IMG/VR virus record: IMGVR_UViG_3300049781_000043
Coordinates: 1 to 45,765 of that record
Source: a virus
Lineage: Duplodnaviria; Caudoviricetes
Strand: one strand, 5' to 3'
DNA: 45,765 nucleotides
Position 1 is the first letter of the stretch, and each line of letters starts with the position of its first letter. Below, piece by piece: positions 837 through 22,531 of the stretch. Under the pieces are notes generated by a model. It was not told the origin of the DNA, ran no database searches, and saw only the letters and a program-made list of their open reading frames with translations. A program made the translations under genes and the position numbers.

Positions 837-874
837 TAAACTCGAACACTGACGCCGCTGGTTATGGGCCGGGC
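837..874 (+). promoter_or_regulatory. Late-leader element copy 1 (854-874) with upstream -10-like TAAACT (837-842)
   Basis: GCCGCTGGTTATGGGCCGGGC; one of nine copies. Confidence 0.85.
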
Positions 875-907
875 GACTCCTCCGACCTCATATGAGGAGC
901 CCTGCCC

Positions 908-1915
908 ATGGCGAAGTGCTGCGGCGCCCGCTCCTGCTTCTGCACCGTGACGGCCGGGCCCGGCGTCACGGTCGACGGGAACGGCTCGCCCACCAACCCC
1001 TACGTCGTCAGCTCGGACGCGGCGGCCACGCCCACCCCGCTCGGTGTCACCGACACCCCGACCGTCGACCTCACCCTCACCGGCACGGGCACGGCCGGCG
1101 ACCCCTACGACGTCCACGCGGACGTGATCCTCGACCCGACGCCGCCCGGCGGGGGCTCGAACCTGCTTCAGGCCGGTCCCGAGGGCCTGTTCGTCGAGTG
1201 CGCCGACGTCCGGACCTGCTTCAGCGCAGGCGACGGCGCCGGGTACGACCCGGCCACCGGGGAGATCACGGCGCGCCTGTCGACCGACCCGGGCAACGCC
1301 GCGGTGTTCGGTACGGACGGCGGCCTCTACGCCCCGGTCGGGGGCAGCGCGGCCGTGCAGACCGCGTGCGGCCTCACCGGGGACGGCACGGCCGGGACGC
1401 CCCTCGCCGCCGAGGTGGCCGCCTGGCCGTACCCGTGCGACGTCGACGCGAACGCGGGCCGGGTGTTCTGCGACAACACGGGGCAGTTGCGCTCCGAGCC
1501 CCGCGGCTCCATCACGTTCATGCAGGATCAGCAGACCTTGGACGCCGCCGACCTGGTGGTCCCCACACCCGAGGACACGGAGGTTGCCACCCACGTCCTC
1601 AACGTGCCCAACCCGGATCCGTGCCGCTCGGCGTTCGTGATCATGGAGGCGGAGGTCGACGCGGATTTCAACCTCCCCCCGGGGGCCGGTGCCGCGCTCG
1701 GTATCAGCACGGATGAGATGTCCTACCTGGGCAACTCGGGGGCCACGCCGATCCTCGACACCCACGTCCAGAGCACGAAGGTCGTGAACGGCGGCACGAT
1801 CGCGCCGGGCGGAACGCTCACTTACACCCTCTCCATCCGCATGGGCCGGGGGTCCGCGGGCGCGACCTACAACCGCGTTCAATCCTTCCTCCGTGCCTTC
1901 GTCGTCGTCCTGTAA
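908..1915 (+). CDS. Cys-rich fibre-like virion protein, paralog A
   Basis: GAGGAG RBS; MAKCCGARSCFC N-terminus, GxGTxxxPY repeats; similar along its length to 17943-18779. Confidence 0.75.
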   Translation: MAKCCGARSCFCTVTAGPGVTVDGNGSPTNPYVVSSDAAATPTPLGVTDTPTVDLTLTGTGTAGDPYDVHADVILDPTPPGGGSNLLQAGPEGLFVECADVRTCFSAGDGAGYDPATGEITARLSTDPGNAAVFGTDGGLYAPVGGSAAVQTACGLTGDGTAGTPLAAEVAAWPYPCDVDANAGRVFCDNTGQLRSEPRGSITFMQDQQTLDAADLVVPTPEDTEVATHVLNVPNPDPCRSAFVIMEAEVDADFNLPPGAGAALGISTDEMSYLGNSGATPILDTHVQSTKVVNGGTIAPGGTLTYTLSIRMGRGSAGATYNRVQSFLRAFVVVL

Positions 1916-1926
1916 GGAGCGCCCCC

Positions 1927-2217
1927 ATGACAGATCTGTACTACCGCACCGCTGGCGGGGTCCTGGCGTCCCGGACGGCGACCGGTGACCACCCGGAGAC
2001 CCCGGCGCTCCCCGAGGGAGCTACGGCCCTCACAGAGGGCGAGTACGCCGACGCCCTCGCCGATGTCGAGGCGCAGCGCGCGAGCTACACGCAGCAGCTC
2101 AAGCAGGAGACCGAGACGAACCAGCAGGCCGATTACGAGGCGCTGCGGACGGCCGGCATCCCCGAGGCCAGCGCGCGCCGCCTGTCCGGCTACACCGGCC
2201 CTGGCGACGGCGCCTGA
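1927..2217 (+). CDS. Small partner of fibre A (putative fibre assembly chaperone)
   Basis: AAGGAG RBS; C-terminal YEALRTAGIPEASARRLSGYTGP matches 18791-19156. Confidence 0.7.
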   Translation: MTDLYYRTAGGVLASRTATGDHPETPALPEGATALTEGEYADALADVEAQRASYTQQLKQETETNQQADYEALRTAGIPEASARRLSGYTGPGDGA

Positions 2218-2247
2218 CCGGCCCTCACGAGACGGAGCACTCCCTTC

Positions 2248-3231
2248 ATGGCTAACTGCTGCGGCGCGGCGCGCTGCACCTGCCGCGTCATCGCCGGCCC
2301 CGGCATCACGGTCGACGGCAACGGCGCACCCGGCGCGCCCTACGTCATCAGCGGACAGGCGGCGGCCGGGACCGTCGTGCAGGCCGCCGACACCTCGACC
2401 CTCGACGCCCACGTCACCGGCACAGGGGCCGCAGGAGACCCGTACATCGTCTCTGGGGACGTCATCGTCGCCCCGGAGCCCAACGGCGTCGAGGCGGCCG
2501 CAAACGGCCTCCTCGTCGCTCCCAGCGCCGACGCGGGGAACCGTCTGGCGTTCGGTGGCGACGGGCGCCTCTACGTCCCCCCGGCGCCCCCGCCCGAGGT
2601 CGGGTGTGGCCTCCGGGGCGACGGGACTGCGGCCTCCCCGCTCGCGGCGTACCCGATTGGCGGTTCGGACGCGTGGGCCGATCACTGGAACTGCACCGAC
2701 ACCGCGCACTCGACGCTGAAGTGCGACCCTGCCACTGGGGCCCTGTGGACGCCGCCGGAGCACTACACGGCGGCTGACCACCTGTATCAGGAGCACATGA
2801 GCCCGTCGATCGCGTCCATGGGTCCCACGAGCGGATGGGCGGTCCTCCAGCCGGGCGGCGTCCCGGCGTTCTTCCGCTTCGACGTGCCGGCGAACTTCCT
2901 CGGGAACGACTGCCGCCTGTGGACGTGGGACAGCCAGGTCAACGGCTCGATGGATATCAATTGGTCATCCACGGCCACGTTCGAAGTCGGGTACGTCGTG
3001 CAGAAGGACGGCGGCCCGGCGATGGTGCGCCCGCTGTGGAGCATCCTCACCGCCACCGGGTCGGCCCGCCGGGAGCGGCGTGCCGGTGGCGTCTGCGAAG
3101 CGATGTTCAACCTCCCGGCTGGCAGCGGGAGCACGGTGGTGTACTTCCCGGCTGTCAACGTGCTCACCGGGACGATCGGCATCAACTCGTGGACGTCGGA
3201 CGGCACGATCCACACCACCACTCAGGCGTGA
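2248..3231 (+). CDS. Cys-rich fibre-like virion protein, paralog B
   Basis: MANCCGAARCTC; N-terminal half similar to paralog A, different C-terminal domain. Confidence 0.75.
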   Translation: MANCCGAARCTCRVIAGPGITVDGNGAPGAPYVISGQAAAGTVVQAADTSTLDAHVTGTGAAGDPYIVSGDVIVAPEPNGVEAAANGLLVAPSADAGNRLAFGGDGRLYVPPAPPPEVGCGLRGDGTAASPLAAYPIGGSDAWADHWNCTDTAHSTLKCDPATGALWTPPEHYTAADHLYQEHMSPSIASMGPTSGWAVLQPGGVPAFFRFDVPANFLGNDCRLWTWDSQVNGSMDINWSSTATFEVGYVVQKDGGPAMVRPLWSILTATGSARRERRAGGVCEAMFNLPAGSGSTVVYFPAVNVLTGTIGINSWTSDGTIHTTTQA

Positions 3232-3244
3232 CCGGAGGGCACCT

Positions 3245-3496
3245 ATGCCGCGCTATTTCGCATCCCCCGACGGTTCGGCCGTCGCCATGGCCGAGGACGG
3301 CCCTGTCGCCTCCTCGTCGCTCCCGCCGGACTGGACGGAGATCACCGCCGAGGAGTACGCCACGAAGCAGGAGGAGCACCGCCAGGCGGCCGACGCGCTC
3401 GCCGCGGACTTCATCGCCAGCGACGGGCAGCTCCCCCCGCCGGACGAGGGCACACCGCCGCCCGTCGAGGATCCGCCCCTCGACGGCGGGAAGTAG
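3245..3496 (+). CDS. Small partner of fibre B (putative chaperone)
   Basis: GGAGG RBS before ATG 3245; LPPDWTEITAEEYA resembles LPEGATALTEGEYA and IPEGAKLVTQEEYE. Confidence 0.7.
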   Translation: MPRYFASPDGSAVAMAEDGPVASSSLPPDWTEITAEEYATKQEEHRQAADALAADFIASDGQLPPPDEGTPPPVEDPPLDGGK

Positions 3497-3501
3497 GCGG
3501 C

Positions 3502-5493
3502 GTGCGCGTCCTGTTCCTGCTCCCGTATTACGGGACCGCCACGCCCACGGGGGCGTTCATCACGAGCCGGGAGTACGCCCTCGGCCTGGTGGCGGCCGGG
3601 CACACGGTCGACGTCGTCCTGACGCGCCGTGAGCCCGGCACCGTGCACGTCGAGGACGGTGTACGGGTGTGGCCCGAGCGGGAATGGTGGAGCGCCGTCC
3701 GCACGGTGCGGCCGGAGCTGGTGATCTCCCACCACGGCGACCGCCGGGCCCCTCAGATGGTGCAGCACCTCCGGGCGGTGCCCCACCTGCTGATGGTGCA
3801 CGGCCTGACCGGACGGCCCCGGCTCGGGGCGCCGGCGCTCGCCTGGTTCCCCTCGCACGCCTGCCGCGACCACTACCGCGACTATCGGGGCCGGGCCCTG
3901 GTCCTGCCTCCTCCGGTCGACCCGGGGCTCTACCGCACCCGGCCGGGGACGCTGGTCACGATGAACGGGACCGCGCCGGAGAAAGGCCCTGGCGTCCTTG
4001 CTGAGGTGGCCGCCCGGATGCCCGACGAGCGGTTCCTCCTCGTCGAGTCCTACGGCTACTCGGCCGCCGTCGACCTGCCGAACGTCGAGATCGCCGGACG
4101 GATGGACCCGCGCGCCCTGTACGCCCGCACCCGGCTGCTGCTGATGCCCTCGACGACGGAGTCCTACGGGCGGGTCGGCGTCGAGGCGATGCTGTCGGGG
4201 ATCCCCGTGATCGCCTCCCCGTTGCCTGGTATCCGCGAAGCCCTCGGGGACGCCGCGGTGTACGTGCCCCGCGACCGGGCGGACAGGTGGGTCGAGGAGG
4301 TCCGGCGCCTGTCTGCCCCGGCGGCCTACGCGGCGGCCTCCGGCCGCGCCCTGGCGCACGCCGAGGGCTTGGACCACGCGGCCACCGTCGCCGCGTTCAC
4401 CGCGGCGTGCGAACGCCTCGCCCGGCCCGTGGCCCCGGTGCGGGCGCGCCGCCCGGCCGTCCCGCCGCCCGTCGAGGACGCCGACGTTGTGGCGTGGGTC
4501 CACTTCGGGGTGCCCTACCGGAGGGCCGGGTCGGAGACCATGCTTCACACGATGATGCGCGCCCTCGTCGAGGCCGGGCTGTCGGGGCTGGTGGTCTGCT
4601 CCGACATGCGCGAGGCGCCCGCCGGATGGGACGTCGACGGCGTCCCGTACCGGCACCTCGCCCCGGCCGCGGCCGCCGACCTCGTCCGGGCGCTGCGGCC
4701 GAAGGTCGTCGTCACACACCACGACTTCGCCGAGCAGGCGATCATCCTGTCCCACGAGACCGGCGCCCGCTCGCTGCTGCTGGTACACAACGACTTCGAC
4801 CGCTCCGCGCGCGCCCTCGCGGCCGGCCCCGACCTGGCGGTCTACAACACCCGGTGGGTCCTGGAGTCGCTGACCGGCCGGTACCCGGAGCAGGTCCGCG
4901 CGGCCGGCGCCCTGGTCGTGCACCCCCCAGTTCTCCCCGACGAGCACCGGGCGCCCCGGCCGGGGACACACGTGACGCTCGTGAACCTCAGCAGGCACAA
5001 GGGCGTGGACACCTGGCGGGCGGTCGCCGGGCTGCGCCGCGACCTGCCGTTCCTCGGCGTCATGGGAGCGCACGGCGAGCAGGTCGCCCGGATCACACAG
5101 CCGAACATGCGGATCGCGCGGCCGACGTCGGACATGCGGCGGGACGTGTGGGCGCGTACGCGGGTGCTGATGGTCCCGAGCGTCTACGAGTCGTATGGCA
5201 TGGCTGCCGTCGAGGCCCTGGCGTCGGGGCTCCCCGTCATCGCGCACCCCACCCCGGGCCTGCGTGAAGCCCTCGGCGAGGCCGGGACGTTCGTCGACCG
5301 GGCCGACTGCCGGGCGTGGGCGGCCACTGTCCGGGGCCTGTACCGCAACGGGCCGCGCCGCGAGGAGGCCACCGCCGCGGCGGTCGAGCGCAGCGCGTTC
5401 CTCGCCGACCAGACCCGCCACGAGCTGAAGCTGTGGACGGCCGCGGTCCAGGATCTCGCACACGCAACGGTGCGGAAGCCTGGCCACAGCTAG
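3502..5493 (+). CDS. Tandem (two-domain) GT-B/GT4-family glycosyltransferase
   Basis: Two GT4 motifs: LMPSTTESYGRVGVEAMLSGIPVIAS and MVPSVYESYGMAAVEALASGLPVIAH. Confidence 0.92.
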   Translation: MRVLFLLPYYGTATPTGAFITSREYALGLVAAGHTVDVVLTRREPGTVHVEDGVRVWPEREWWSAVRTVRPELVISHHGDRRAPQMVQHLRAVPHLLMVHGLTGRPRLGAPALAWFPSHACRDHYRDYRGRALVLPPPVDPGLYRTRPGTLVTMNGTAPEKGPGVLAEVAARMPDERFLLVESYGYSAAVDLPNVEIAGRMDPRALYARTRLLLMPSTTESYGRVGVEAMLSGIPVIASPLPGIREALGDAAVYVPRDRADRWVEEVRRLSAPAAYAAASGRALAHAEGLDHAATVAAFTAACERLARPVAPVRARRPAVPPPVEDADVVAWVHFGVPYRRAGSETMLHTMMRALVEAGLSGLVVCSDMREAPAGWDVDGVPYRHLAPAAAADLVRALRPKVVVTHHDFAEQAIILSHETGARSLLLVHNDFDRSARALAAGPDLAVYNTRWVLESLTGRYPEQVRAAGALVVHPPVLPDEHRAPRPGTHVTLVNLSRHKGVDTWRAVAGLRRDLPFLGVMGAHGEQVARITQPNMRIARPTSDMRRDVWARTRVLMVPSVYESYGMAAVEALASGLPVIAHPTPGLREALGEAGTFVDRADCRAWAATVRGLYRNGPRREEATAAAVERSAFLADQTRHELKLWTAAVQDLAHATVRKPGHS

Positions 5494-5571
5494 ACTCCTT
5501 GATCGTAGGTATGCCGCTGGTTCTGGGCCGGGCTCCCCACCACGTATGACGCTGCTGGTTGTGGGCCGAGC
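5491..5571 (+). promoter_or_regulatory. Late-leader element copies 2a (5513-5533) and 2b (5551-5571) with -10-like TAGACT (5491-5496)
   Basis: GCCGCTGGTTCTGGGCCGGGC and GCTGCTGGTTGTGGGCCGAGC. Confidence 0.85.
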
Positions 5572-5602
5572 CACCACACGCCATTCGTGTTGGAGGGCCC
5601 CA

Positions 5603-6307
5603 GTGACTTGCCCCCTGATCGCAAACCTCGACACCGTCCGCGTCACCAGAGTCGACAACTGTGGTCGGCCTGTCTGTGGCGACGACAACGGTTTCGTCTT
5701 CGACTGCCTCGCCAGCGTCGCCATGAACCCGAACACGGACGACGGCGACGATGTGAGCTACAAGGCCGCCAACGGGAAGCAGTGCGGTTTCAAGCGCGGC
5801 TGCCCGACGTTCAACGGCTACGACGTCGAGATCAACTTCTTTAGCGTCAGCCCGGAGTTCCTGGAGATCACCACCGGTAACCCGGTCGTGTTCGACTACG
5901 CGGGCAAGCCCATCGGCTACGACGACTGCTCGCTCCAGTGCAACAGCGGTTTCGCGCTGGAGCTGTGGGCCGAGGTGCTGGGCTCCGACGCCTGCGCCGC
6001 CGACGCCTCGGGCGACGGCGCATGGATCTACTTCTTGCTCCCGTGGGTGACGAACGGAATCCTCGGGGACCTCGAAGTCGGCTCGGAGGCCGTGACGCTC
6101 CAGCTGACCGGCGCGACCCGCTCCGGTGGCGGCTGGGGTGTCGGACCGTACGACGTCATCGCGAAGGACGCGGCCGGCACCCCGAGCCCGCTCCTCACCC
6201 CGCTCGGCTCGACCTGCCACCGCAGGACGATGGTCACGACCATCGCGCCCCCAGCGCCGGTCTGCGACTACGTCCCGGTCACCGGCGGCCTGTGCCTGGC
6301 CTCCTGA
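5603..6307 (+). CDS. Major tail (tube) protein
   Basis: GGAGG RBS before GTG 5603; RVTRVDNCGRP, KAANGKQC, FALELW, YFLLPWV and WGVGPYDV motifs of actinophage tail tube proteins. Confidence 0.8.
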   Translation: MTCPLIANLDTVRVTRVDNCGRPVCGDDNGFVFDCLASVAMNPNTDDGDDVSYKAANGKQCGFKRGCPTFNGYDVEINFFSVSPEFLEITTGNPVVFDYAGKPIGYDDCSLQCNSGFALELWAEVLGSDACAADASGDGAWIYFLLPWVTNGILGDLEVGSEAVTLQLTGATRSGGGWGVGPYDVIAKDAAGTPSPLLTPLGSTCHRRTMVTTIAPPAPVCDYVPVTGGLCLAS

Positions 6308-6320
6308 CGCCGTGACGGAC

Positions 6321-8765: not shown

Positions 8766-8779
8766 CAGCCGGGGGCGGT

Positions 8780-8814
8780 TACCCTACGGTCACGCCGCTG
8801 GTTCTGGGCCGGGC
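8780..8814 (+). promoter_or_regulatory. Late-leader element copy 3 (8794-8814) with -10-like TACCCT (8780-8785)
   Basis: GCCGCTGGTTCTGGGCCGGGC. Confidence 0.85.
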
Positions 8815-8843
8815 GAGGAGCGCGGGAGACAAGGACACGACCC

Positions 8844-9395
8844 GTGGCACGTAAGAAGATCACGCTCAACACGGAGCCCCACGTCGTCGAGATCGGCGAC
8901 ACCGAGCTTCTGTTCCTCCCCGAGGTCATGGGGGACGAGTTCGTCGACGCGTTCGGCGAGCTGAAGGAGGCGCAGAAGGCCGCCAGCGGTATCGACCTCG
9001 ACGACCTCTCGACGCTCGACCAGTCCATGATCCGGGGCGCCGCCCGCGCGATGCGCGCCTTCCTGGCGCGGCTCATGCTGCCTGAGTCGGCCGACCTGTT
9101 CACCCGGATCAACGTCGTCGACACCGCCGGGACGATGCTGGAGTCCTTCCACGACCAGGACGAGGCGAAGGCGTACGCCGAGCAGCACAAGGGCTCGCGG
9201 ACCGTGGACGCCTTCCCGCTGCCGGACCGGGTCCTCGTCGACATCATGGAGTTCGTCGTCCAGCTGTACGGGGCCGGTGCCGACGAGCGCCCTCCTACGT
9301 CGTCCTCCGCCTCGTCGAAGCCATCGCCGAAGGGTGGGAGGCGTGGGATGGGAGTCTCGCCCTCCAGGGCGTCAACCCCCGCGAGTGGCCGCTGA
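8844..9395 (+). CDS. Tail assembly chaperone (gpG-like)
   Basis: Upstream of tape measure; acidic helical protein with low-complexity tail after ERPPT. Confidence 0.8.
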   Translation: MARKKITLNTEPHVVEIGDTELLFLPEVMGDEFVDAFGELKEAQKAASGIDLDDLSTLDQSMIRGAARAMRAFLARLMLPESADLFTRINVVDTAGTMLESFHDQDEAKAYAEQHKGSRTVDAFPLPDRVLVDIMEFVVQLYGAGADERPPTSSSASSKPSPKGGRRGMGVSPSRASTPASGR

Positions 9396-9640: not shown

Positions 9641-9718
9641 GCTGAGATCAGCCGGGCCGTGTGCCCGCCTGCTGCCGACTGGTTTTGGGCCGGGCACACC
9701 GCTGGTTCTGGGCCGGGT
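9638..9718 (+). promoter_or_regulatory. Late-leader element copies 4a (9674-9695) and 4b (9698-9718) with -10-like TAGGCT (9638-9643)
   Basis: GCCGACTGGTTTTGGGCCGGGC and ACCGCTGGTTCTGGGCCGGGT. Confidence 0.85.
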
Positions 9719-9747
9719 AACACCACTCACTCACGTGGGGTTGCCCG

Positions 9748-12700
9748 ATGGCCGGCGAGGAAGAGGATTACGGATCCGCCCGGATCACCATTGATCTGGA
9801 CGACGCTGACGCCGTCGCGGATGCCCGGGAGCTCGGCCTCCGTATCGCCCGCGCCCTGGACCGCGCCACCCGCACTATCGGTGCGCAGATCCGCCGCAAC
9901 ATCCAACGGGGCATCACGGCGGCCGGGGCCGTCAAGGTCAAGGTCGAGCCCGACCTCAGCGGCTTCAACGACGCGCTACTCACCGAGCTCCGGTCACGTC
10001 TCGACGCGATCCGTATTCCCGTCGAGCCGGACTTGCGCCGGTTCAACCGGGGGCTGATCCAGGGGCTAAGCGACCTGGACGGGATCAACATCCCGATCAT
10101 CCCGGACCTGCGGCGGTTCGAGACGCTGCTTCGCAACGGGCTCCGTGGCCTAGAGGTCCGTATCCCGGTCGTCCCGGACCTTGACGGTTTGGATGCTCGT
10201 ATCCGGGCGCACCGGCCGCCGGACATCAACGTCCGGGTCAACGCGGACGTCGACAACGACCGGCTGTCGCGCGCCCTGTCCGGCGTGGGCGGGATCGCTG
10301 GCCGGGTTGTCAGGGCGCTGCGTGGCCTGCTGGTCTTCGGTGCTGTCGGCATCGCCGCGGCGAGCGCCGCTCAGGGCGTGGGCGCGCTGCTGGCGGCGCT
10401 CGCTCCGGCGGGCGGCATCATCGCCGCACTCCCGGCCGTCATCGCCACCACACAGGTCGCCCTGGGCACGCTCAAGCTGGCCGTCCTCGGCGTCGGGGAT
10501 GCCCTCTCCGCTGCGTTTGCCGGGGACGCGAAGAAGTTCAGCGAGGCCCTGGAGAAGCTGTCACCGGCGGCGCAGAAGGCGGTGCTGGCGGTCAAGGCGC
10601 TGGGGCCGGAACTCCGCAACGTGCAGCAAGGCATCCAGCAGTCATTTTTCAAGCAGTTCTCCGGGGACATCACCAACGCGATCAAGAATTTGCTGCCGCT
10701 GAAAACGCAGCTCAACCAGGTCGCGACCGAGTTCGGCAAGGCTGCCTCCGAGGGACTGAAGTTCGCGGCGAGCGAGCAGGCCACCGCCCCCCTCAAGACG
10801 ATCATTCAGGGCACGGCGCAGGCCGCCTCCGGGCTCCAGTCCGCTATCGCCCCGCTCGTGAAGGGGTTCCTGGACGTTGCGGCCGCGGTCACCCAGGCGT
10901 TCGGCAAGCAGGTCGGCGACCGGATCGGGCAGGTCGGCGCGCAGGTCGGCACCTTCCTGTCCGCGTTCGCCGCTTCCGGGCGGGCCGTGGAAGTCGTGCG
11001 CGGCGCGCTGGCCGTCTTCCGTCAGCTGGGCGCCATCGCCAAGAACGTGGGCGGCATCCTCCGCGGCGTCTTCGCTGCCGCCGATGCTTCTGGCGGCGGG
11101 CTGCTGAACAACCTCCAGCAGATCACCGGTTCGTTCCGGGAGTTCGTCAACAGCGCGCGGGGCCAGGAGGCAATTCAGAACCTGTTCGGGACGGTCGCCA
11201 CCATCGCGGCGCAGCTCGGCCCCATTCTGTCGTCCCTGGTCACGCAGGTCGGGCGTATCGCACCGGCCTTGGGCCCGGTCTTTGAAGAGCTCGGCCCAGC
11301 CATCACCGGGCTGATCGACGCGCTCGGTCCGGCGGTCGCCAAGATCGCTCCGAGTCTGCAAGACGTGGCGCGCGGCCTGGGCGAGGCGTTCAAGGCGATC
11401 GGCCCGTCGCTGGAGCCGCTGGGAGCGTCGATCGGCAAGGTCCTGGAGGCGCTGTCACCGCTGCTGCCTTTGGCCGGGGAGATCGCGGCCACCCTCGCCG
11501 ACGTACTCGGCCCTGTCCTGGATGATCTGGTCGCCTTGTTCCGGCCGATCATCGACGCGGTAGCGGACTCGCTGATCCCCGTCTTGCCGGAACTCGGCGA
11601 AGCCTTCAAGGGGGTCGCCAAGGCCCTGGAGCCTCTTGCGGCAGCTCTGGGGCAGGGCCTCGGTGACGCGATCCGGGAGATCCTGCCGCCCCTGGCGAAG
11701 CTGCTGCCGAAAGCGATCAAGGACATGACGCCAGCCCTGGAGAAGCTGGTGGACGCGGTCTCGCCGCTGATCCCGCAGCTGATCGACCTGGCCAAAGAGG
11801 CGATCAAGCCGCTCCTTCCCGAACTGCCCAAGCTCGTACGGCTGTCGGCCGACATGGCGAAGACCTTCGCGGACCTCGCCGTCAAGCTCAAGCCCATCCT
11901 CCCGCCGCTGCTCAAGCTCACCGCCGCGCTCCTGAAGTTCGCCACCAGCAAGATCGTCGTTCCGCTGCTCAAGAAGATCATCAGCGGCCTGACCGGGCTG
12001 GCCCGCATCACCGAGAAAGTCCTCGGCAAGATCGGCGACTTCGTCGACGACGTCATCGGCTTCTTCCGGAAGCTGTACGACGTCCTCGTCGGCCACAGCA
12101 TTATCCCGGACTTGATCAACGGCATCGTCGGTTGGTTCCAGCGGCTGCCGGAACAAGTCGGCCAAGTCGTATCCAGCATGGTCGACTCGGTGATCGGCTG
12201 GTTCCAGAGCCTTCCCGGGAAGGTCGGCGAGGCCCTTACCGCCCTGGGCCAGTTCCTGCTGACGAAGTTGGGTGAGGCGTTCGGGCAGGGGAAGGCGGCG
12301 GCGTCGTCCTTTGTGGATGCGACGGTTGCCCTTCTGGCTGGCCTGCCTGCCAAGGCTTTCGGAGCGCTGGCTGGGCTGGGCCAGTTCCTGCTGACGAAGT
12401 TGGGTGAGGCGTTCACGCAGGGGAAGGCGGCGGCGTCGTCCTTCGTGGACGCGACGGTTGCCCTTCTGGCTGGCCTGCCTGCCAAGGCCCTCGGAGCGCT
12501 GGCCGGGCTGGGCCAGCTCATCCTGAGCAAGCTGGGTGAGGCGTTCGGGCAGGGGAAGGCGGCGGCGTCGTCCTTCGTGGGTGCGACTGTCGCCGTTCTG
12601 GCTGGCCTGCCTGGCAAGGCCCTCGGGGCGCTGTCCTCGCTCGGCTCCCGCTTGGCCGGTGTCCTCCGCAGTGCGGGTAACTCTGCCTTGGGCGCGGCCC

Positions 12701-14136: not shown

Positions 14137-15455
14137 TGGCGGCCGAGTGGTACATGAACTTCGGCGGCGTGGAGGTGGCGAACCACTCCCGCCTGACCAC
14201 CTACCTACAGACGGTGGGCTCCCCGCTCACCGACTTCAGCGGGTGCGGCTGCCCGACGTTCGGCGCCGAGATGCTGGAGGAACTGCCGTACACCACGCCG
14301 GACGACGAGGACAGCCCCGCGCCCTGGTACGACGCCGACGTCCCGCAGAGCACGGAGTTCGCGGGGATCATGGTCCTCGACGTCGCGGGCCTGGACGACT
14401 ACCCGGTCCAGCGGTCCGTGACCGGAGGGATCGCCGGCGGCGGGGCGCTCGGCCCTTCCCGGGCGCTGCCGCGCACGATCACGGTCACGGCCCTGGTCCT
14501 CGGCTCGACCTGTTGCGGGGTGGACTACGGGCGCCACTGGCTCGGGCAGGTGCTCCAGGGCTGCACTTCGGGGGAGTGCGACGGGGACTGTCTCCAGGTG
14601 TTCAACTGCTGCCCCGGCGAGGAGATGACCGCGGCTGAGTTCCAGGCGAACCACCGGCGCACGCTGCGCCGGGTCGCCCTCGTCGAGGGCCCTCGGGTCA
14701 TCGCGCGGGCGGGCGATGGGTGCGGCACCGGCCGGTGCCAGAGCGGCGCGGACATTCTCACCGTCGAGTGGGTGATGACCGCGGCCGTGCCGTGGCTGTG
14801 GACGGACCCGACGCCGGTGATCGAGGTCACCCCGCCCATGGACCTCGACAACTCCTGTGTCGAGTGGTGCGTCCACCCGGCCGGGAACGCCGGGTGTCCT
14901 GGCGGCTGCCGGTTCGCCGACTGCCCGGATCCCACGGCGGCGTGCGCGGACACCCGGTGCGCGACCGACCTGCCTCCGCTGCCAGGCCAGCCGCTCAACA
15001 CCTGCTACTGCCTGCCGCTGGCGTCGGAGCGGGCCTGTTACGAGATGGACCTGACCGGCCGGCCGAACTGGTCGTCGGACGTGCCGGTCATCACGGTCCG
15101 GTCGGGCTCCTCCGACCTGCGGAACGTGACGATCGAGATCTATGAGCAGAACGACCCCACGCTGACGTGCGAGGAGACCGCCGACCTCGACCGGTGCGCG
15201 CCTCACTCGTTCTGGCACGTCACGTACGTCCCGGCCGGGGGCGCGGTCACGATCGACGGGCAGACCGGGCGCGCCACGGTGGAGTGCGGCGGGGTGTGCG
15301 AGTCGTCCCCGGACGTCTACGGGAAGGACGGGATGCCCCCGACGTACAACCTCCTCGAATGCGCCTCGTACTGCGTCTGCATTTCTACGGATCTTCAGAG
15401 CCCGCCGGCGCTCGACGCCGTGGTCACGGTCAACGTCTCAGGCAGGGGGCTCTAG
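14136..15455 (+). CDS. Minor tail protein (distal-tail-like), Cys-rich
   Basis: TGATG-coupled to tape measure; 28 Cys in 439 aa by my count. Confidence 0.75.
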   Translation: MAAEWYMNFGGVEVANHSRLTTYLQTVGSPLTDFSGCGCPTFGAEMLEELPYTTPDDEDSPAPWYDADVPQSTEFAGIMVLDVAGLDDYPVQRSVTGGIAGGGALGPSRALPRTITVTALVLGSTCCGVDYGRHWLGQVLQGCTSGECDGDCLQVFNCCPGEEMTAAEFQANHRRTLRRVALVEGPRVIARAGDGCGTGRCQSGADILTVEWVMTAAVPWLWTDPTPVIEVTPPMDLDNSCVEWCVHPAGNAGCPGGCRFADCPDPTAACADTRCATDLPPLPGQPLNTCYCLPLASERACYEMDLTGRPNWSSDVPVITVRSGSSDLRNVTIEIYEQNDPTLTCEETADLDRCAPHSFWHVTYVPAGGAVTIDGQTGRATVECGGVCESSPDVYGKDGMPPTYNLLECASYCVCISTDLQSPPALDAVVTVNVSGRGL

Positions 15456-16499
15456 ATGGCGGTCGCGGGGTGCGGTACCCATACCGCCGCGGTGCTCGAC
15501 AGGAACGGCGCGACGGTCGCGGTCGCCGAGGTGCTGACCGAGGTGGAGTGGTCCAGGGTCCTGGACGGGGTCTCGACGGCGCGGGCGTTGATCCAGCCCG
15601 ATGGCGACTGCTGCAACCGGCTCGGCCGTGTTGGGACGTGGCGGAACCGGCTGGTGATCTTCCGTGATGGTCAGTACGTGTGGGACGGCCCGATCACCGG
15701 GATCTCGTGGTCCCTCGGTGAGGTGGAGCTGTCCGCCTCGGATGTCCTGGCCTGGCTCGACAACCGCGTCCCCCACGAAGCCCGGACGTTCACGAGCGTC
15801 GACCTCTCCGAGGTCGCGTCATGGCTGATCGAGGACGGCTACGCCCCCGACGACCCCGGGCACACGGTCCAGATCATCGACAAAGCCGGGGTCACCGGGT
15901 CGCGGACGTACTCGATCGGCATCGGCCAGACCGGGGACCACCTCCGCCAGCTCGCCGAAGCCGGGATCGACTTCACGGCCATCGGCTCGAAAATCCTGCT
16001 CCTGCCGGAAACGCACATGGCGAGCGTCGGCCGCCTCTCCGACGCCGACCTCCCCGACGGCCTCCAGGTTGCCGAGGACGGCGCGGCCCTCGTCACCCGG
16101 TGGGTTGTCGCCGGATCCGAGAACAGCGGCGCCATCGGGTCGTTCGGGGGCGTCGATCCCTACTACGGGCTGCATGAGCGGTACGTCGAAATGAGCGAGA
16201 TCACCGACAACGCCTCGGCGACGGAGGCCGCGAAGGCGCGGCAGCGGGTGAGCGGCGTGGTGCCGGTGTACGTGGACACCCAGCAGGTCACCATCAGTCC
16301 CCTCGCCGCGATCAACGTCCCCGCGCTGGTACCCGGCTGGTGCCTTGACGTCACCTCGGCCGGCACCTGCCGGACCGTGTCGCAGCGGCTGAAGATCACC
16401 GGTCTCAAAGTCGCTGAGACCGGCGGCGACGACAGCAGCCCCGGCGCGGAGAGCGTGCAAGTCCAGGTAGCGGCAAGCGGAGCGGAGGCGGCGGTCTGA
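15456..16499 (+). CDS. Minor tail protein (tail-tip hub/Gp37-like)
   Basis: EWSRVLDGVSTA and LVIFRDGQYVWDGPI motifs; second gene after tape measure. Confidence 0.75.
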   Translation: MAVAGCGTHTAAVLDRNGATVAVAEVLTEVEWSRVLDGVSTARALIQPDGDCCNRLGRVGTWRNRLVIFRDGQYVWDGPITGISWSLGEVELSASDVLAWLDNRVPHEARTFTSVDLSEVASWLIEDGYAPDDPGHTVQIIDKAGVTGSRTYSIGIGQTGDHLRQLAEAGIDFTAIGSKILLLPETHMASVGRLSDADLPDGLQVAEDGAALVTRWVVAGSENSGAIGSFGGVDPYYGLHERYVEMSEITDNASATEAAKARQRVSGVVPVYVDTQQVTISPLAAINVPALVPGWCLDVTSAGTCRTVSQRLKITGLKVAETGGDDSSPGAESVQVQVAASGAEAAV

Positions 16500-16954
16500 T
16501 GGCCATGCGTGGGAGCCCGGCCCGGCGGGTGCCGGGGAACCCTCTGGCGGGGGTACTGGTCCACCTCGACCAGCGCGCGAGGATCGGCGGCCGCAAACGG
16601 TCCCCCAGTGCCCCGGCGTTGGGCGAGGACACGTCGGCCCCGGCCGCGCCCGTGGCGGCGCCTGGCGCGCCCCTGGCGGCCGTTCTGACGTCCGGGGAGG
16701 ACGGGCGTGCCCGGCTCGACTTCCCGGCCCTGTACGGCCGCGTCCCGGCCGTCACCGCGGTCGCCGTCGACCCCGATCCCGGGGACGACGAACGCACCGT
16801 GTGGGCGGTGCTGGAGGAGGTCACCGGCTGGTACGCGACCGTCCGCGTGTGGCGGACCCGGGCGCGTCGAGGGTCGGGGGTCGCTGAGTCGGCCGGGCCG
16901 GGGGTGCGCGTCCACGTGATGGTGGCCCCCGTGGCAGGCGGCGAGGACGGTTAA
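16499..16954 (+). CDS. Putative minor tail protein
   Basis: TGATG overlap; resembles 525-830. Confidence 0.65.
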   Translation: MAMRGSPARRVPGNPLAGVLVHLDQRARIGGRKRSPSAPALGEDTSAPAAPVAAPGAPLAAVLTSGEDGRARLDFPALYGRVPAVTAVAVDPDPGDDERTVWAVLEEVTGWYATVRVWRTRARRGSGVAESAGPGVRVHVMVAPVAGGEDG

Positions 16955-16987
16955 CCTGCTGCTCGCGCCGCTGGTTGTGGGCCGGGC
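16952..16987 (+). promoter_or_regulatory. Late-leader element copy 5 (16967-16987) with -10-like TAACCT (16952-16957)
   Basis: GCCGCTGGTTGTGGGCCGGGC. Confidence 0.85.
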
Positions 16988-17014
16988 CGATCCTCCTGTG
17001 TCTGGAGTGCTCCC

Positions 17015-17737
17015 GTGGCCGCAGTGTGCGTAGATGACGACTACTTCGACGTCGGTCCGGACGGCCGACTCACGATGGTTCCGGGGTCCATGGGCCTGCG
17101 GGACATCCTGTACTTCAAGACCCCGGGGAGCTTCACGTTCGAGAAGGGTGACTACCCCTGGCTCTCGCGCATCTTCGTCCAGGTCCAGGCGGGCGGGGGA
17201 GGCGCGGCCGGCGCCCGCGCGAGCGCCAATTCGCTCGTGGCGCAGCCGGGCGGTTCGGGCGGCGGGTACGCGGAGCGGTTGGTCGAAGCCTCGACGTTGG
17301 GCGCCACGGAGTCGATCGTCGTCGGTGCGGGCGGCGACGCCGGGACGCCGACGGTCGACGGCGGTGCCGGTGGTGGCTCGTCCTTCGGTGGTCTGTGCAC
17401 GGCGCTGGGCGGCAACCCGGGCAACGCCGTCATGCCCTCGGGGGCGACGCCGATGTGCCTGTCCGGCACCTCGGGGCCCCTCGCGGGGGTGGGTGACTGG
17501 GCACAGGGTGGCGGCCCTGGTGGCGGCGCACTGCGGATCAACGGCAGCGATGGGCAGAGCGGCGAGGGCGGTGACTCCCACCTCGGTCACGGCGGCTGGC
17601 AGCGCGCCTCCAGCGGGGCGGGCGGCGCCACCCGCGGCTACGGCGCAGGCGCGGCCGGCGCCCTCGCCCGCGACGGTGACAGCGTCAACGGGACCGTTGG
17701 ATCGTCCGGGCTCGTCGTCGTCTGGCTCTTTGCCTGA
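17015..17737 (+). CDS. Glycine-rich domain tail fibre/spike protein
   Basis: VQVQAGGGG, GGSGGGYAE, VGAGG, SSFG and terminal GSSGLVVVW pattern of phage polyglycine-II domains. Confidence 0.8.
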   Translation: MAAVCVDDDYFDVGPDGRLTMVPGSMGLRDILYFKTPGSFTFEKGDYPWLSRIFVQVQAGGGGAAGARASANSLVAQPGGSGGGYAERLVEASTLGATESIVVGAGGDAGTPTVDGGAGGGSSFGGLCTALGGNPGNAVMPSGATPMCLSGTSGPLAGVGDWAQGGGPGGGALRINGSDGQSGEGGDSHLGHGGWQRASSGAGGATRGYGAGAAGALARDGDSVNGTVGSSGLVVVWLFA

Positions 17738-17744
17738 CCCCTCG

Positions 17745-17870
17745 GGCGGAGGGCCGTCCGCCCTGTCGTCCGCCCCTGGCGGACGGTGCGTCCCCGCAGG
17801 CCAGGAGCGCCGTCCGCCCTCGGCGTCCGCCGTCCGTCCGCGCGGTCGTCCGCACCCGGACGGGCGGGGC
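17745..17870. repeat. Intergenic cluster of CGTCCG/CGGACG short repeats
   Basis: Multiple G(C/T)CGTCCGC units and inverted CGGACGG copies. Confidence 0.65.
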
Positions 17871-17875
17871 GTCGA

Positions 17876-17913
17876 TAGACTCGACGACGCACGCCGCTGG
17901 TTATGGGCCGGGT
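17876..17913 (+). promoter_or_regulatory. Late-leader element copy 6 (17893-17913) with -10-like TAGACT (17876-17881)
   Basis: GCCGCTGGTTATGGGCCGGGT. Confidence 0.85.
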
Positions 17914-17942
17914 CGTTGCAAGTCCGCGAGGACGGTGACTCA

Positions 17943-18779
17943 GTGGCGCGATGCGGCTGCGCGGGCGGTCAATGCGACTGCAAGGTAGAGCCCGGTACGA
18001 ACGTGTCGGTGAGCGGCAGCGGCTCCCCGGCGAACCCCTATGTGATCTCGGCGGAGGTCCCGTGCGAGGACGTCCGCGCGTGCCTGTCGGCCGGGCCCGG
18101 GATCACCTTCGATGCGGCGACCGGACAGATCTCCGGCCACCTCTCCAGCCAGGCCGGTAACAACATCACGGTCGGCCCGGACGGCGGTCTCATGGTGCCG
18201 ACGGCCGGGGGCCAGGTGCTCACCGGCTGCGGCCTGACCGGCAACGGCTCGGCCTCCGCGCCGGTCGCGGCGAACACGCAGGCGTGGCCGTACGGGTGCG
18301 CCGTCGACACCTACGCGGGCGGGGTCTACTGCGACACCCAAGGGAGGCTGCGGTCCGAGCCGCGGGGGAACCTCTCGTTCATCAGCTACTTCGACAACCG
18401 GGACTACAACGACATCGCCGTCCCAGCCGCACAGAACACCGTGCTCGACTCCTTCACGGTCAACGTGACCAACCCGGATCCCTGTCGTCAGGCGATGGTT
18501 CTGACGGAGCGAGAGGTCGACGTCTACGTGGCGCTTCCGGCCGGGGCCGCCGCGGGCACCGGGCAGGGCTCCGATGAGATGTTCTACATGCGCAACACCG
18601 GCACCTCGACGATCGTCGGAGTGCATGCGCAGAGCACGAAGTTCATCTCGGAGTCGTCCCTCCTCCCGCCCGGGGCGACGATGCCGGTGACGCTGAACGC
18701 GACCGGTGGCCGCGGTGCGGGCGGCGCCTACTACTACCAAATCAACTTCATCCTGCGGACCATGATCATCAGCCTGTGA
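17943..18779 (+). CDS. Cys-rich fibre-like virion protein, paralog C
   Basis: GTG 17943 (MARCGCAGGQCDC); shares AWPYxCxVD..G.V.CD..G.LRSEPRG and NPDPCR with 908-1915. Confidence 0.75.
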   Translation: MARCGCAGGQCDCKVEPGTNVSVSGSGSPANPYVISAEVPCEDVRACLSAGPGITFDAATGQISGHLSSQAGNNITVGPDGGLMVPTAGGQVLTGCGLTGNGSASAPVAANTQAWPYGCAVDTYAGGVYCDTQGRLRSEPRGNLSFISYFDNRDYNDIAVPAAQNTVLDSFTVNVTNPDPCRQAMVLTEREVDVYVALPAGAAAGTGQGSDEMFYMRNTGTSTIVGVHAQSTKFISESSLLPPGATMPVTLNATGGRGAGGAYYYQINFILRTMIISL

Positions 18780-18790
18780 GGAGCGCTGCC

Positions 18791-19156
18791 ATGTCCACTG
18801 GTTCCCCTGGTCTGCTCGGTTGGCCGTGGCCCTGGCCGGGCGGTGATGGCGAGGACCCGCCGGCGCCGCCGGAGCCGGTCACGAGCTACCTCCACCTCGC
18901 GGACGGCACCCTCTCCCAGATCACCGTGACCGGCACGGACCCGGTGATCCCCGAGGGCGCGAAGCTGGTGACGCAAGAGGAGTACGAGCAGCTGCGCGGG
19001 GCGATGCTCGAAGCCCGCGAGGCCCGTATCGCCGAGCTGATGGCCGCCGAGGAGGAGTCGATGCGCACGCAGTACGCCGACCTGAAGGCGGCCGGTATCC
19101 CCGAGGCGACCGCGCGGGCCCTGTCCCGCTACGAGGGCCCGGCGGAGGGGGCGTAA
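18791..19156 (+). CDS. Small partner of fibre C (putative chaperone)
   Basis: GAGGAG RBS before ATG 18791; YADLKAAGIPEATARALSRYEGP. Confidence 0.7.
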   Translation: MSTGSPGLLGWPWPWPGGDGEDPPAPPEPVTSYLHLADGTLSQITVTGTDPVIPEGAKLVTQEEYEQLRGAMLEAREARIAELMAAEEESMRTQYADLKAAGIPEATARALSRYEGPAEGA

Positions 19157-19159
19157 AGC

Positions 19160-19197
19160 TACACTCCAGGCACGACGCCGCTGGTTCTGGGCCGGGC
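19160..19197 (+). promoter_or_regulatory. Late-leader element copy 7 (19177-19197) with -10-like TACACT (19160-19165)
   Basis: GCCGCTGGTTCTGGGCCGGGC. Confidence 0.85.
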
Positions 19198-19223
19198 AGA
19201 CCCCCTCCTCGGGAGCAGAGCCC

Positions 19224-22395: not shown

Positions 22396-22531
22396 AACCG
22401 TCACCGTACGAGAGGCGTCTGACACCGCGCGTAGGGTGGGCAGAACAACGCCCCCACCGCAGCTCGGGGGCGCGGCGGGGGCGCTGTTCGGAGTAGCGTT
22501 CTGAGTGTCTAGGTCAGAACGGAGCACCAGT

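Follow-up and report, generated by a model that had tools for sequence, protein, structure and literature searches.

A bulged, covarying RNA hairpin in the late-gene leaders of a Streptomyces-type phage and a rival helix near the start codon

The stretch of DNA analysed here (the window) is a whole record of 45,765 nt, from which about half of the genome is absent. The phage is temperate and of the Streptomyces type, and it carries nine copies of a 21-nt bulged hairpin with a conserved 14-nt core, located in seven leaders as follows.

837..842, +: -10-like hexamer TAAACT, 11 nt before copy 1; the family-wide form is TAnnCT
854..874, +: hairpin copy 1, outer stem GCC/GGC, loop A; pattern and covariance model
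875..910, +: leader 1; CUCCUC (877-882) is complementary to the Shine-Dalgarno site GAGGAG (894-899); GCCC-ATG at 908
ATG 908, +: gene after leader 1, encoding 335 aa, Cys-rich at the N-terminus, without family match
5491..5496, +: -10-like TAGACT, whose TAG doubles as the stop codon of 3502-5493; distance to copy 2, 16 nt
5513..5533, +: hairpin copy 2, leading a tandem pair
5551..5571, +: hairpin copy 3, which completes this pair, compensated GCU/AGC; the tandem is also present in TurkishDelight
5572..5605, +: leader of the major tail gene (phrog_792, 7.5e-92), with a local hairpin, Shine-Dalgarno site GGAGG (5592-5596) and GTG at 5603
8780..8785, +: -10-like TACCCT, 8 nt before copy 4
8794..8814, +: hairpin copy 4; pattern and covariance model
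8815..8846, +: leader of a tail assembly chaperone homologue that matches TurkishDelight gp26; GTG at 8844
9674..9695, +: hairpin copy 5, first of a tandem, with the 3-nt bulge GAC, a variant that recurs in the tape-measure leaders of relatives
9698..9718, +: hairpin copy 6, compensated ACC/GGU
9719..9750, +: tape-measure leader, ATG at 9748; 31 orthologous leaders compared
16952..16957, +: -10-like TAACCT, whose TAA doubles as the stop codon of 16499-16954; distance to copy 7, 9 nt
16967..16987, +: hairpin copy 7; pattern and covariance model
16988..17017, +: leader of a glycine-rich tail fibre-like gene; CUCC (16993-16996), GGAG (17004-17007), CCC-GTG at 17015
17876..17881, +: -10-like TAGACT, 11 nt before copy 8
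17893..17913, +: hairpin copy 8, GCC/GGU with a wobble
17914..17945, +: leader of a 278-aa gene without family match, N-terminus VARCGC; GTG at 17943
19160..19165, +: -10-like TACACT, 11 nt before copy 9
19177..19197, +: hairpin copy 9; pattern and covariance model
19198..19226, +: lysis-block leader; CUCCUC (19205-19210), GGGAG (19211-19215), CCC-ATG at 19224; encoded further on are an endolysin of the amidase type (19536-20639) and a holin-like protein

The exact pattern RCYGCTGGTTNTGGGCCGRGC has eight matches (854, 5513, 5551, 8794, 9698, 16967, 17893 and 19177), all on the + strand, compared with none in 100 shuffles. The ninth copy, at 9674-9695, has an extra bulge base (GAC) and was found as a core match with one mismatch. 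Over the whole record, the tally is nine forward and no reverse copies, with none for the reversed-pattern control. When two or three mismatches were allowed, the extra matches fell on both strands at about the chance level (18 in total versus 9.0 +/- 3.0 expected). A covariance model built from 141 copies and run on the window gave eight matches of 33-41 bits; that listing omits the copy at 9674, which overlaps the 9698 match. The next-best scores were only 14.1 bits (22079, E 1.9) and 11.8 bits (15011), and we therefore place no copy right of 19.2 kb. The nine copies of the sequence-only reading, their single orientation and their confinement to the left of that point are thus confirmed.

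GC3 frame analysis and homology likewise bear out the intergenic placement of all copies. The copy at 17893 falls within a mechanically open frame (17034..18779); the coding frame switches at this point and the homologous gene begins at GTG 17943, which makes this copy intergenic too. The names 'fibre A' and 'fibre C' proposed for two of the downstream genes could not be verified, because their proteins match no family. The idea that the element marks a late regulon agrees with its distribution, as only late (virion and lysis) genes follow it in the window and in the complete genome of Streptomyces phage TurkishDelight.

The same core is present in TurkishDelight, in 32/32 related IMG/VR records and in prophages from at least seven actinomycete genera. 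The 32 records contain 229 core matches (14 nt, at most one mismatch), nearly all of them exact, whereas the coding DNA is ~72% identical. These copies are confined to late regions, with 225 on one strand versus 4 on the other and 15 matches for the reversed-pattern control; related genomes carry up to 13 copies. A search of the whole window against Rfam 15 gave no match at the gathering score, consistent with the claim that the element belongs to no described family, and at E up to 5 the 1-20 kb region yielded two archaeal snoRNA chance matches, both off the motif.

For covariation analyses, 144 copies were picked by context and not by fold. Their outer stem most commonly reads GCC/GGC (94 copies), GCU/GGC (20), GCU/AGC (6) or ACC/GGU (6), and more rarely GUC/GAC (4), GCC/GGU (3), ACU/GGU (2), GUU/AGC (1) or GUU/AAC (1); it is mismatched in 2 of the 144, and 5 more have a 3-nt bulge. 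Changes on both sides occur at all three outer-stem pairs, in 22 cells compared with 2.8 +/- 1.5 after shuffling (0/500 reach 22). Altogether, 99.4% of the outer-stem cells are able to pair, and the one-sided changes are wobble-compatible in 25 of the counted copies versus one A-C mismatch. The covariation, with one-sided changes that are nearly all G-U wobbles, supports an RNA structure of the transcribed strand.

In rare variants of the inner stem, U-G is replaced by C-G at pair 9-15 in genuine leaders (L367:5719, L383:12467 and L190:18851) and at pair 10-14 in one such context (L176:2323). No inner-stem pair with changes on both sides was found among the copies analysed, in which the 14-nt core was fixed by the search pattern and its variation is constrained by this selection; the invariance of the inner core could also stem from recognition at the DNA level. 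RNAalifold recovered the bulged hairpin unprompted from 18 capsid leaders, with a consensus pentaloop closed by U9-G15. Of the fold initially proposed, the triloop closed by U10-G14 is the weakest part. At least 8 copies, found in 4 prophages, show a joint change of loop positions 10 and 13 from U,G to G,A. The isolated hairpin has a predicted energy of -5.3 kcal/mol, not better than that of shuffled sequence (z +0.1 to +1.0).

Upstream of the hairpin, a TAnnCT hexamer ends 6-13 nt before it in 115/144 copies, for a background of 0.0056 per position. When 116 copies were aligned on a hexamer located 5-14 nt upstream, the fifth base of the hexamer was C in 103 and the base two positions ahead of it was G in 70, with no -35 signal; by its sequence, the hexamer looks like a -10 element devoid of a -35 partner, and might belong to a host-type -10-only promoter (TAnnnT). 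With its A/U bases it stands out in this 71% G+C DNA, where such spots are few. Downstream, the start codon lies 24-33 nt from the hairpin, with a mode of 28, and there is no Shine-Dalgarno site within the element itself. A scan of the + strand from 1 to 20 kb for intrinsic terminators found none.

The 3' arm of the hairpin (GGGCCGGGC) can alternatively pair with the spacer that separates the Shine-Dalgarno site from the start codon. Among 31 distinct tape-measure leaders, GGUUGCCC directly ahead of the start codon pairs with eight nucleotides, namely hairpin positions 18-21 and the 4 nt after them. Standard pairs are seen at six of the eight positions in 31/31 leaders and at the remaining two in 30/31 and 25/31, and two of the eight show changes on both sides. 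In the tape-measure leader of the window, GGGUAAC, which runs from the G of hairpin position 18 through C 9722, is able to pair with GUUGCCC at 9740-9746, and this pairing would bury the Shine-Dalgarno site. Covarying forms of this rival helix include GGGC/GCCC, GAGC/GCUC, GGAC/GUCC and GGGU/ACCC. The whole rival structure, including a local helix, has 10 both-side cells versus 3.6 +/- 1.6 after shuffling (0/500). The same three columns of the 3' arm pair 100% with hairpin positions 1-3; since both the outer stem and the rival helix covary, a single arm has two mutually exclusive partners. This is illustrated by a three-way change in L286, where G19 has become A, C3 has become U and GCCC reads GCUC. 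Of 20 copies with a non-GGGC arm, 7 carry the complement of their own arm in the spacer ahead of the start codon, downstream of the Shine-Dalgarno site, and the four 4-mers concerned are present in ~6% of 202 GGGC copies. No description of the hairpin element was found in the literature, and its -10-like hexamer, its near-fixed distance to the start codon and its covarying long-range rival helix are new points.

Folding of the leaders is consistent with such a competition. Start codons were chosen by a simple rule, and 33-35 of the 144 copies were dropped because they had no clear Shine-Dalgarno site or start codon or were the first of a tandem pair. In 109 leaders, the ribosome-binding site (RBS, taken as the Shine-Dalgarno site through the start codon) has a predicted accessibility of 0.26, compared with 0.35 for shuffled spacers (p 1e-11). 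This value rises to 0.45 when the hairpin is enforced, a gain of 0.19 versus 0.12 in shuffled spacers (p 3e-7), and pairing of the 3' half with the spacer before the start codon is 0.39 versus 0.25 (p 5e-9). Perfect complements of at least 5 nt are found in 32/111 leaders versus 8.8 for shuffled sequences, and in 31/111 versus 12/94 for other TurkishDelight genes. Since many leaders are orthologous, the counts overstate the number of independent events. CCC is found at -3..-1 in 26/111 motif leaders versus 17/94 other TurkishDelight genes, and within -5..-1 in 47/111 versus 21/94. The enrichment in complementarity over other TurkishDelight genes is moderate. Within full leaders, the hairpin is predicted to form with a probability of just 0.01-0.04, and the mean cost of enforcing it is 10.7 kcal/mol; an ON state would therefore need kinetics or a binder.

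Our favoured reading, to which we give about even chances, is a regulon-wide two-state translational switch in which the hairpin is the ON arm, probably locked ON by a putative binder. Host RNA polymerase would start at TAnnCT, so that the mRNA would begin at the hairpin or close to it, and the hairpin would fold first. In the OFF state, the more stable long-range helix and the local anti-Shine-Dalgarno helix would take over and hide the RBS. In the ON state, a sequence-specific binder of the bulged hairpin would keep it closed and the RBS open, turning on all late genes together. This binder might be a protein of the head module that has a single classical C2H2 zinc finger (in 15/16 complete records, missing in 1), a 66-aa CxxC...CxxC protein whose gene adjoins the portal gene (in 14/16, missing in 2), or a host factor. 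Both zinc-protein genes lie outside the window, which covers only part of the genome, and their co-occurrence with the motif proves little, because both ride in the motif-carrying module. In a more ambitious version, which we hold tentatively and deem somewhat unlikely, one invariant hairpin would serve as the ON/OFF handle of the whole late regulon across a large actinomycete phage family, a single zinc-finger protein of the head module would bind it and free every late RBS simultaneously, and unrelated prophages would have borrowed the cassette to sense the signal. One such prophage would be G032, in which the cassette precedes a gene for a 36-aa membrane peptide.

The switch might also work without a binder, the hairpin folding first and only delaying the closing helix, which would grant ribosomes brief access to the nascent RNA. 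It would then tune or limit the yield per transcript, with timing set by promoters, for instance through the phage WhiB. We consider this unlikely, even though several observations fit it. The weakness of the hairpin is that expected of a transient structure, and G032 has a tandem motif pair and lacks both candidate zinc proteins. The window, TurkishDelight and G027 have in common only the structural module and WhiB, the endolysin being common to the window and G027 alone; among these three genomes, no shared regulator other than WhiB, and no conserved candidate binder, was found outside that module. However, the inner stem and the loop of a purely structural timer would be expected to drift, contrary to the near-exact conservation of the core against the divergence of the coding DNA, and the conserved tandem pairs are hard to account for.

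A nut- or put-like site, where the nascent hairpin, with or without a protein, makes RNA polymerase resist pausing or Rho and read through long late genes, is quite unlikely in our view. The promoter-proximal position on the transcribed strand only, the small bulged hairpin with a conserved loop, the joint changes at positions 10 and 13 and the tandem copies ahead of the 4.4-kb tape-measure gene all agree with it. Nevertheless, the + strand between 1 and 20 kb has no intrinsic terminator-like site, the fixed distance of ~28 nt to the start codon and the covarying helix close to it are both unexpected for an antitermination site, and no N-, Q- or NusG-like gene was seen by Pfam and PHROG scans in the window, which lacks half of the genome.

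We find it very unlikely that the cassette is a 5'-end stabiliser or processing module, with TAnnCT as a cleavage or start site and the hairpin keeping RNase J or RNase E off the newly made 5' end. The predicted 5' end within a few nt of the hairpin and the rarity of A/U-containing spots such as the hexamer would suit this role, but the hairpin has no stability beyond that of shuffled sequence, its sequence, unlike that of a generic stabiliser, is invariant, the second copy of each tandem is internal and the rival helix is left unaccounted for. A DNA site, either an asymmetric stoperator-type operator or part of a phage-specific promoter, would explain the invariant 14-bp core, single orientation and short intergenic gaps, but it is highly improbable given the wobble-compatible one-sided changes, the covariation of the 3' arm with an RNA partner 25 nt away, the lack of copies near the immunity/early region (28-33 kb) or elsewhere right of 19.2 kb, and the variable hexamer-hairpin spacing of 6-13 nt.

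Returning to the two-state switch, we compared the element with known systems. Like lambda N/boxB (nut) and HK022 put sites, it is a short, conserved, promoter-proximal hairpin on the transcribed strand, and its tandem copies and jointly changing loop positions suggest a specific binder. Unlike them, it has a fixed start-codon distance, pairs with the region before the start codon, and has no terminators to read through in the + strand region scanned; no boxA or arginine-rich N-like gene as in lambda was noticed in this half of the genome.

The stoperators of mycobacteriophage L5 are intergenic DNA sites for the repressor, in one orientation, found in the two arms of the genome as well as at the early promoter. 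The hairpin copies are similarly numerous, asymmetric, oriented with transcription and placed in intergenic gaps, but they are restricted to the late region and their variation obeys RNA pairing rules. An L5-type stoperator was rejected, since the window has no copy right of 19.2 kb, including the integrase and helix-turn-helix regulator region, and all nine copies in the complete TurkishDelight genome lie at 12.9-30.6 kb. In PMC3203893, the stoperators are 13-bp sites acting in transcription regulation.

The SAS of Cluster K mycobacteriophages is a 13-bp repeat at the RBS position, 3-7 bp from the start, which contains AGGAG and belongs to the non-structural arm; for ESAS, RNA pairing received little support from the authors' analysis (PMC3203893). 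Repeated intergenic motifs are described in Microbacterium phage clusters EC, EF and EG, that of EC lying 21-30 bp ahead of start codons and starting with TAGaCT (PMC7302621). Like the hairpin element, all are short asymmetric one-orientation repeats that occupy small intergenic gaps before the starts of some actinobacteriophage genes and are conserved between gene families (PMC3203893, PMC7302621). Identity with SAS/ESAS was rejected, as the hairpin ends 24-33 nt before the start without a Shine-Dalgarno site; it also differs in marking virion and lysis genes, in its RNA covariation and in its unrelated sequence.

Of the two analogies drawn by the sequence-only reading, the Mu Com target fits better than lambda boxB, because each leader carries an RBS-hiding structure that competes with the hairpin. 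In the mom gene of phage Mu, a small hairpin adjoins a structure in which the Shine-Dalgarno site and start codon are hidden. Com, a small zinc-finger protein, is said to open the mom RBS on binding the hairpin. Mu has a single target gene as opposed to seven leaders here and up to 13 copies in relatives, there is no sequence likeness with mom, and the competing helix here uses the hairpin's own 3' arm. As in Mu mom, a hairpin appears to compete with an RBS-hiding structure, as supported computationally by covariation and folding, and the two small zinc proteins encoded by related phages are candidates for a Com-like part.

The window, an IMG/VR record of 45,765 bases with a G+C content of ~71%, is rated ~49% complete, and gene calls based on third-position G+C and family scans identify it as a temperate siphovirus. 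Head genes are absent from it. Its main features are the following:

0-21 kb, + strand: tail and lysis genes (third-position G+C, family scans), namely major tail protein, head-tail adaptor, tail chaperone, tape measure, minor tail proteins, glycine-rich fibre-like protein, amidase endolysin and a holin-like gene
right of the tail and lysis region: integrase, helix-turn-helix regulators, RecT/YqaJ, RusA and WhiB (family scans)
22505-23776, adjoining the lysis block on its right side: 423-aa protein whose N-terminus carries a helix-turn-helix domain (Pfam HTH_31; phrog_5823, 'transcriptional regulator'), with no homologue found in the phage TurkishDelight or in the complete related genome G027

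The sequence-only reading had described nine intergenic copies of a bulged RNA hairpin at 854, 5513, 5551, 8794, 9674, 9698, 16967, 17893 and 19177. All nine were recovered at these positions. Eight fit the full 21-nt pattern exactly, all on the + strand, where chance would give none, and the ninth (9674-9695) does have an altered bulge, with one additional base. Every copy lies within a short gap between genes. The open frame that spans 17893 is non-coding there, as the frame with high third-position G+C switches and alignment to the homologous gene in a relative begins at the GTG at 17943. The reported lack of copies right of 19.2 kb also held: a covariance model trained on 141 copies scores eight copies at 33-41 bits and nothing else in the window above 14.1 bits. 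Several products of genes led by the motif (window 908 and 17943, and many related leaders) share a Cys-rich N-terminus (M-A-x-C-C-G or M-A-R-C-G-C-G); these proteins matched no known family.

Among cultured phages, the sole near relative of the window is Streptomyces phage TurkishDelight (93.6 kb, temperate), with 72.6% identity across 29% of the first 20 kb. It also harbours nine copies, all on the + strand and confined to 12.9-30.6 kb; those ahead of the major tail and tape-measure genes are tandem, and the remaining ones precede the capsid gene, the chaperone gene and three tail or fibre genes. Scanning viral contigs yielded 161 stretches, of ~590 estimated across the collection, many of the single matches being chance occurrences in unrelated coding DNA. 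In 32 records, picked because one locus appeared genuine, the 14-nt core was found with at most one mismatch in all 32, 225 times on one strand versus 4 on the other (15 for a reversed-pattern control), and the covariance model gave 239 matches at E ≤0.05. The 21-mer also occurs in prophage-like clusters of reference genomes of Streptomyces, Kitasatospora, Embleya, Nonomuraea, Planomonospora, Planotetraspora and Sphaerisporangium. Matches in Rhodobacterales, one exact copy in each of several genomes (stretches L195, L200, L203, L211, L236, L241 and L263), all fall within one conserved coding gene and were rejected as coincidental.

Two observations concern copies in other settings. The G032 prophage, whose structural module is unrelated, has one tandem motif pair downstream of a TAGAAT hexamer (stretch L364, 10400-10560, minus strand); the pair heads a 36-aa hydrophobic ORF, after which comes a perfect 17-bp inverted repeat rich in G+C, with the integrase and a tRNA-Val adjoining. 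This arrangement might represent a moron or a borrowed cassette, or it might sense the same late signal. In addition, lone variant copies with U9 or U10 changed to C are opposite in strand to the late genes in L176 (2323-2349; G027, 81.9 kb), L383 (12467-12493; genome G031) and G026 (42851), where they occupy a normal leader ahead of a gene beginning M-P. The cassette is thus not strictly limited to the virion module.

The claim that the element is a structured RNA whose substitutions keep the fold was borne out on 144 unique copies, which we picked by context (multi-copy contigs, the window, TurkishDelight and selected late regions) to prevent circularity. All three outer-stem pairs covary: 22 cells change on both sides versus 2.8 ± 1.5 after shuffling (0 of 500 shuffles reach this value), and sliding the partner abolishes the signal. 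GCC/GGC forms the outer stem in 94 of the 144 copies, and the others pair through U-A, A-U or wobble, except for two mismatched copies and five that are out of register owing to a 3-nt bulge. G-to-A changes are seen almost only with a compensating C-to-U; among the copies listed, a change on one side only leaves G-U or U-G in 25 and A-C in one. RNAalifold yielded the bulged hairpin unprompted from 18 capsid leaders, and the reverse strand folds less well (-3.2 kcal/mol). In isolation the hairpin is weak (-5.3 kcal/mol), not better than shuffled sequence.

The search pattern held the inner stem constant, but covariance-model searches of selected regions uncovered variants. In true leader contexts, U9 is changed to C, giving a C-G pair, at L367:5719, L383:12467 and L190:18851, and U10 to C at L176:2323; loop U12 is changed to A or G in four copies, and the outer stem is GAC/GUC at L378:171. 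A class B form, CUGGUG-YUA-GGCCG, combines changes at positions 10 and 13 in at least eight copies from four prophages, and their outer stems still covary:

L190: 13796, 14658 and 18851
L183: 12751
L367: 6516 and 13511
L366: 2470
L372: 3252 and 3281

Class B coexists with canonical copies in these four prophages, and one class B copy has two additional loop bases. It could reflect binding with a different, second specificity or a loop pair resembling that of a tetraloop. A match in Rfam would have removed the novelty of the element; no family matched, even at E ≤5. We dropped pairing of loop position N11 with the start codon (N is G in 61 copies, C in 44, U in 27 and A in 12), as well as tRNA T-arm, sigma-54-like and single-subunit-polymerase readings, which were discarded by eye for wrong spacing or non-conserved positions.

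The leaders have a constrained geometry. The hairpin lies 24-33 nt from the start codon (mode 28), and in 115 of the 144 copies a TAnnCT hexamer ends 6-13 nt upstream of it, against a background of 0.0056 per position. An alignment of 116 copies by a hexamer located 5-14 nt upstream showed C as its fifth base in 103 and G two positions 5' of it in 70, with no conservation around -35. Scanning 1-20 kb of the window with a simple sigma-70 model revealed no promoter with two hexamers. Copies lacking the hexamer are mostly second members of tandem pairs or tape-measure leaders, and in some leaders its TAG or TAA doubles as the stop codon of the upstream gene. We infer a -10-only promoter that would set the hairpin at, or a few bases from, the 5' end; the alternative is a processing site. 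Under either reading the transcript must contain position 1, since the hairpin arms covary with RNA partners.

When whole leaders are folded to minimum energy, another structure usually takes the place of the hairpin. The consensus fold of orthologous tape-measure leaders (14, then 31) pairs the eight bases that begin at hairpin position 18 (positions 18-21 plus four more, GGGC-AACC) with GGUU-GCCC directly before the start codon, and this long-range helix surrounds a local helix containing the Shine-Dalgarno site. Six of its eight pairs are standard in all 31 leaders and the other two in 30 and 25; two pairs show changes on both sides, and the loss of one A is matched by that of one U (AACC/GGUU versus ACC/GGU). 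Including the local helix, the whole rival structure has 10 both-sided cells versus 3.6 ± 1.6 after shuffling (0 of 500 reach it). In these leaders, three columns of the 3' arm also pair in all cases with hairpin positions 1-3, so that one arm has two conserved, mutually exclusive partners. Stretch L286 illustrates a three-way change, with G19 to A, C3 to U and GCCC to GCUC.

We retained 222 of 423 unique core matches as usable leaders, the others being chance matches, first tandem copies or sequences without a clear Shine-Dalgarno site. In some of these leaders the 3' arm meets its own complement before the start codon:

Complement of the hairpin 3' arm between the Shine-Dalgarno site and the start codon
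GGGC arm, complement GCCC: 57 of 202 copies
GGGU arm, complement ACCC: 4 of 9 copies
GAGC arm, complement GCUC: 2 of 8 copies
GGAC arm, complement GUCC: 1 of 1 copy (more GGAC/GUCC cases exist)

The non-GCCC complements occur in just 2-9% of GGGC copies. Across 109 leaders, the predicted accessibility of the ribosome-binding site is 0.26 versus 0.35 with shuffled spacers (p = 1e-11); forcing the hairpin raises it to 0.45, a larger gain than in shuffles (p = 3e-7), at a cost of 10.7 versus 7.8 kcal/mol. The 3' half of the hairpin pairs chiefly with the pre-start spacer (0.39 versus 0.25 shuffled, p = 5e-9) and the start-codon region, and the spacer adjoining the hairpin pairs with the Shine-Dalgarno site. 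Perfect complements of at least 5 nt are present in 32 of 111 leaders versus 8.8 in shuffles; counted within an identical 12-nt span, motif leaders have them in 31 of 111 cases and other TurkishDelight genes in 12 of 94. These enrichments in complementarity and hiding are real but moderate, as G+C-rich RNA pairs easily and many leaders are orthologous. Shuffles and other TurkishDelight genes served as controls because the arm is nearly self-complementary, which invalidates a reversed-arm control.

The most likely reading, which we hold with middling confidence, is that the element is a two-state translational switch. In the OFF state, a nested structure would bury the Shine-Dalgarno site and the pre-start stretch; in the ON state, the bulged hairpin would remove the base of that structure. 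Although transcribed first, the hairpin is thermodynamically the less stable fold and must therefore be held in place by something. That the 14-nt core is nearly invariant, although the phage genes are only ~72% identical, points to a sequence-specific binder, and sets the switch with a binder apart from its first rival, a kinetic switch that would exploit the same two folds binder-free. The hairpin might otherwise be a nut- or put-like modifier of the polymerase; no intrinsic terminator-like site was found on the + strand in 1-20 kb of the window. It might also be a 5' stabiliser or processing module. A DNA operator fits worst, since the substitutions follow the rules of RNA pairing to a partner 25 nt distant.

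No late activator is annotated in the phage family carrying the hairpin, and gene sharing revealed no early-gene regulator: the window, TurkishDelight and G027 have in common only the structural module and WhiB, beyond which the window and G027 share an endolysin. Two zinc proteins, whose function was not assigned by Pfam or PHROG scans, are encoded in the head module, which is missing from the window:

10016-10417 of L174 (G027): C2H2 candidate binder (phrog_30321), with homologues such as TurkishDelight gp19 (L010, 11092-11889); found in 15 of 16 complete records, TurkishDelight and G010, a close relative of the window
adjoining the portal gene: 66-aa CxxC...CxxC candidate binder, homologous to TurkishDelight gp12; found in 14 of 16 complete records

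In the former, a conserved N-domain of ~70 aa is joined by a variable linker, acidic or rich in proline, to one classical, eukaryote-style finger (C-x2-C-x12-H-x4-H) with a conserved basic helix. The latter is not universal, as it is missing from G023, a record with seven model matches, and from G032. Co-occurrence with the motif is weak evidence for both, because they ride in the motif's own module, and the tandem pair of the unrelated G032 prophage is found without either. A host factor, or no factor whatever, is a possible alternative to a phage binder.

To our knowledge, late-gene activation in temperate actinophages is largely unexplained, and the hairpin would offer a testable handle on it: a 21-nt signal of two-state design that many Streptomyces phages and prophages, and those of related genera, carry ahead of nearly every virion or lysis gene block. 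If the proposed switch is correct, it would represent a rare case of regulon-wide post-transcriptional control in a DNA phage. The hairpin could also mark late regions in prophage annotation and provide a compact expression part responsive to phage infection in Streptomyces. Our literature searches found no paper on the motif or on TurkishDelight, and none that deals with late promoters in phages of Streptomyces.

In its logic, the hairpin presumably most resembles the Com/mom system of phage Mu. In genomic pattern, its nearest counterparts are repeats found between genes of actinobacteriophages and still lacking an explanation, namely SAS/ESAS of Cluster K and the motifs of Microbacterium clusters EC, EF and EG (PMC3203893, PMC7302621). 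As far as these accounts describe the motifs, none of them has the sequence, position or RNA evidence of the hairpin, nor does Com/mom; the switch, if true, would account for one member of this class of actinobacteriophage repeats.
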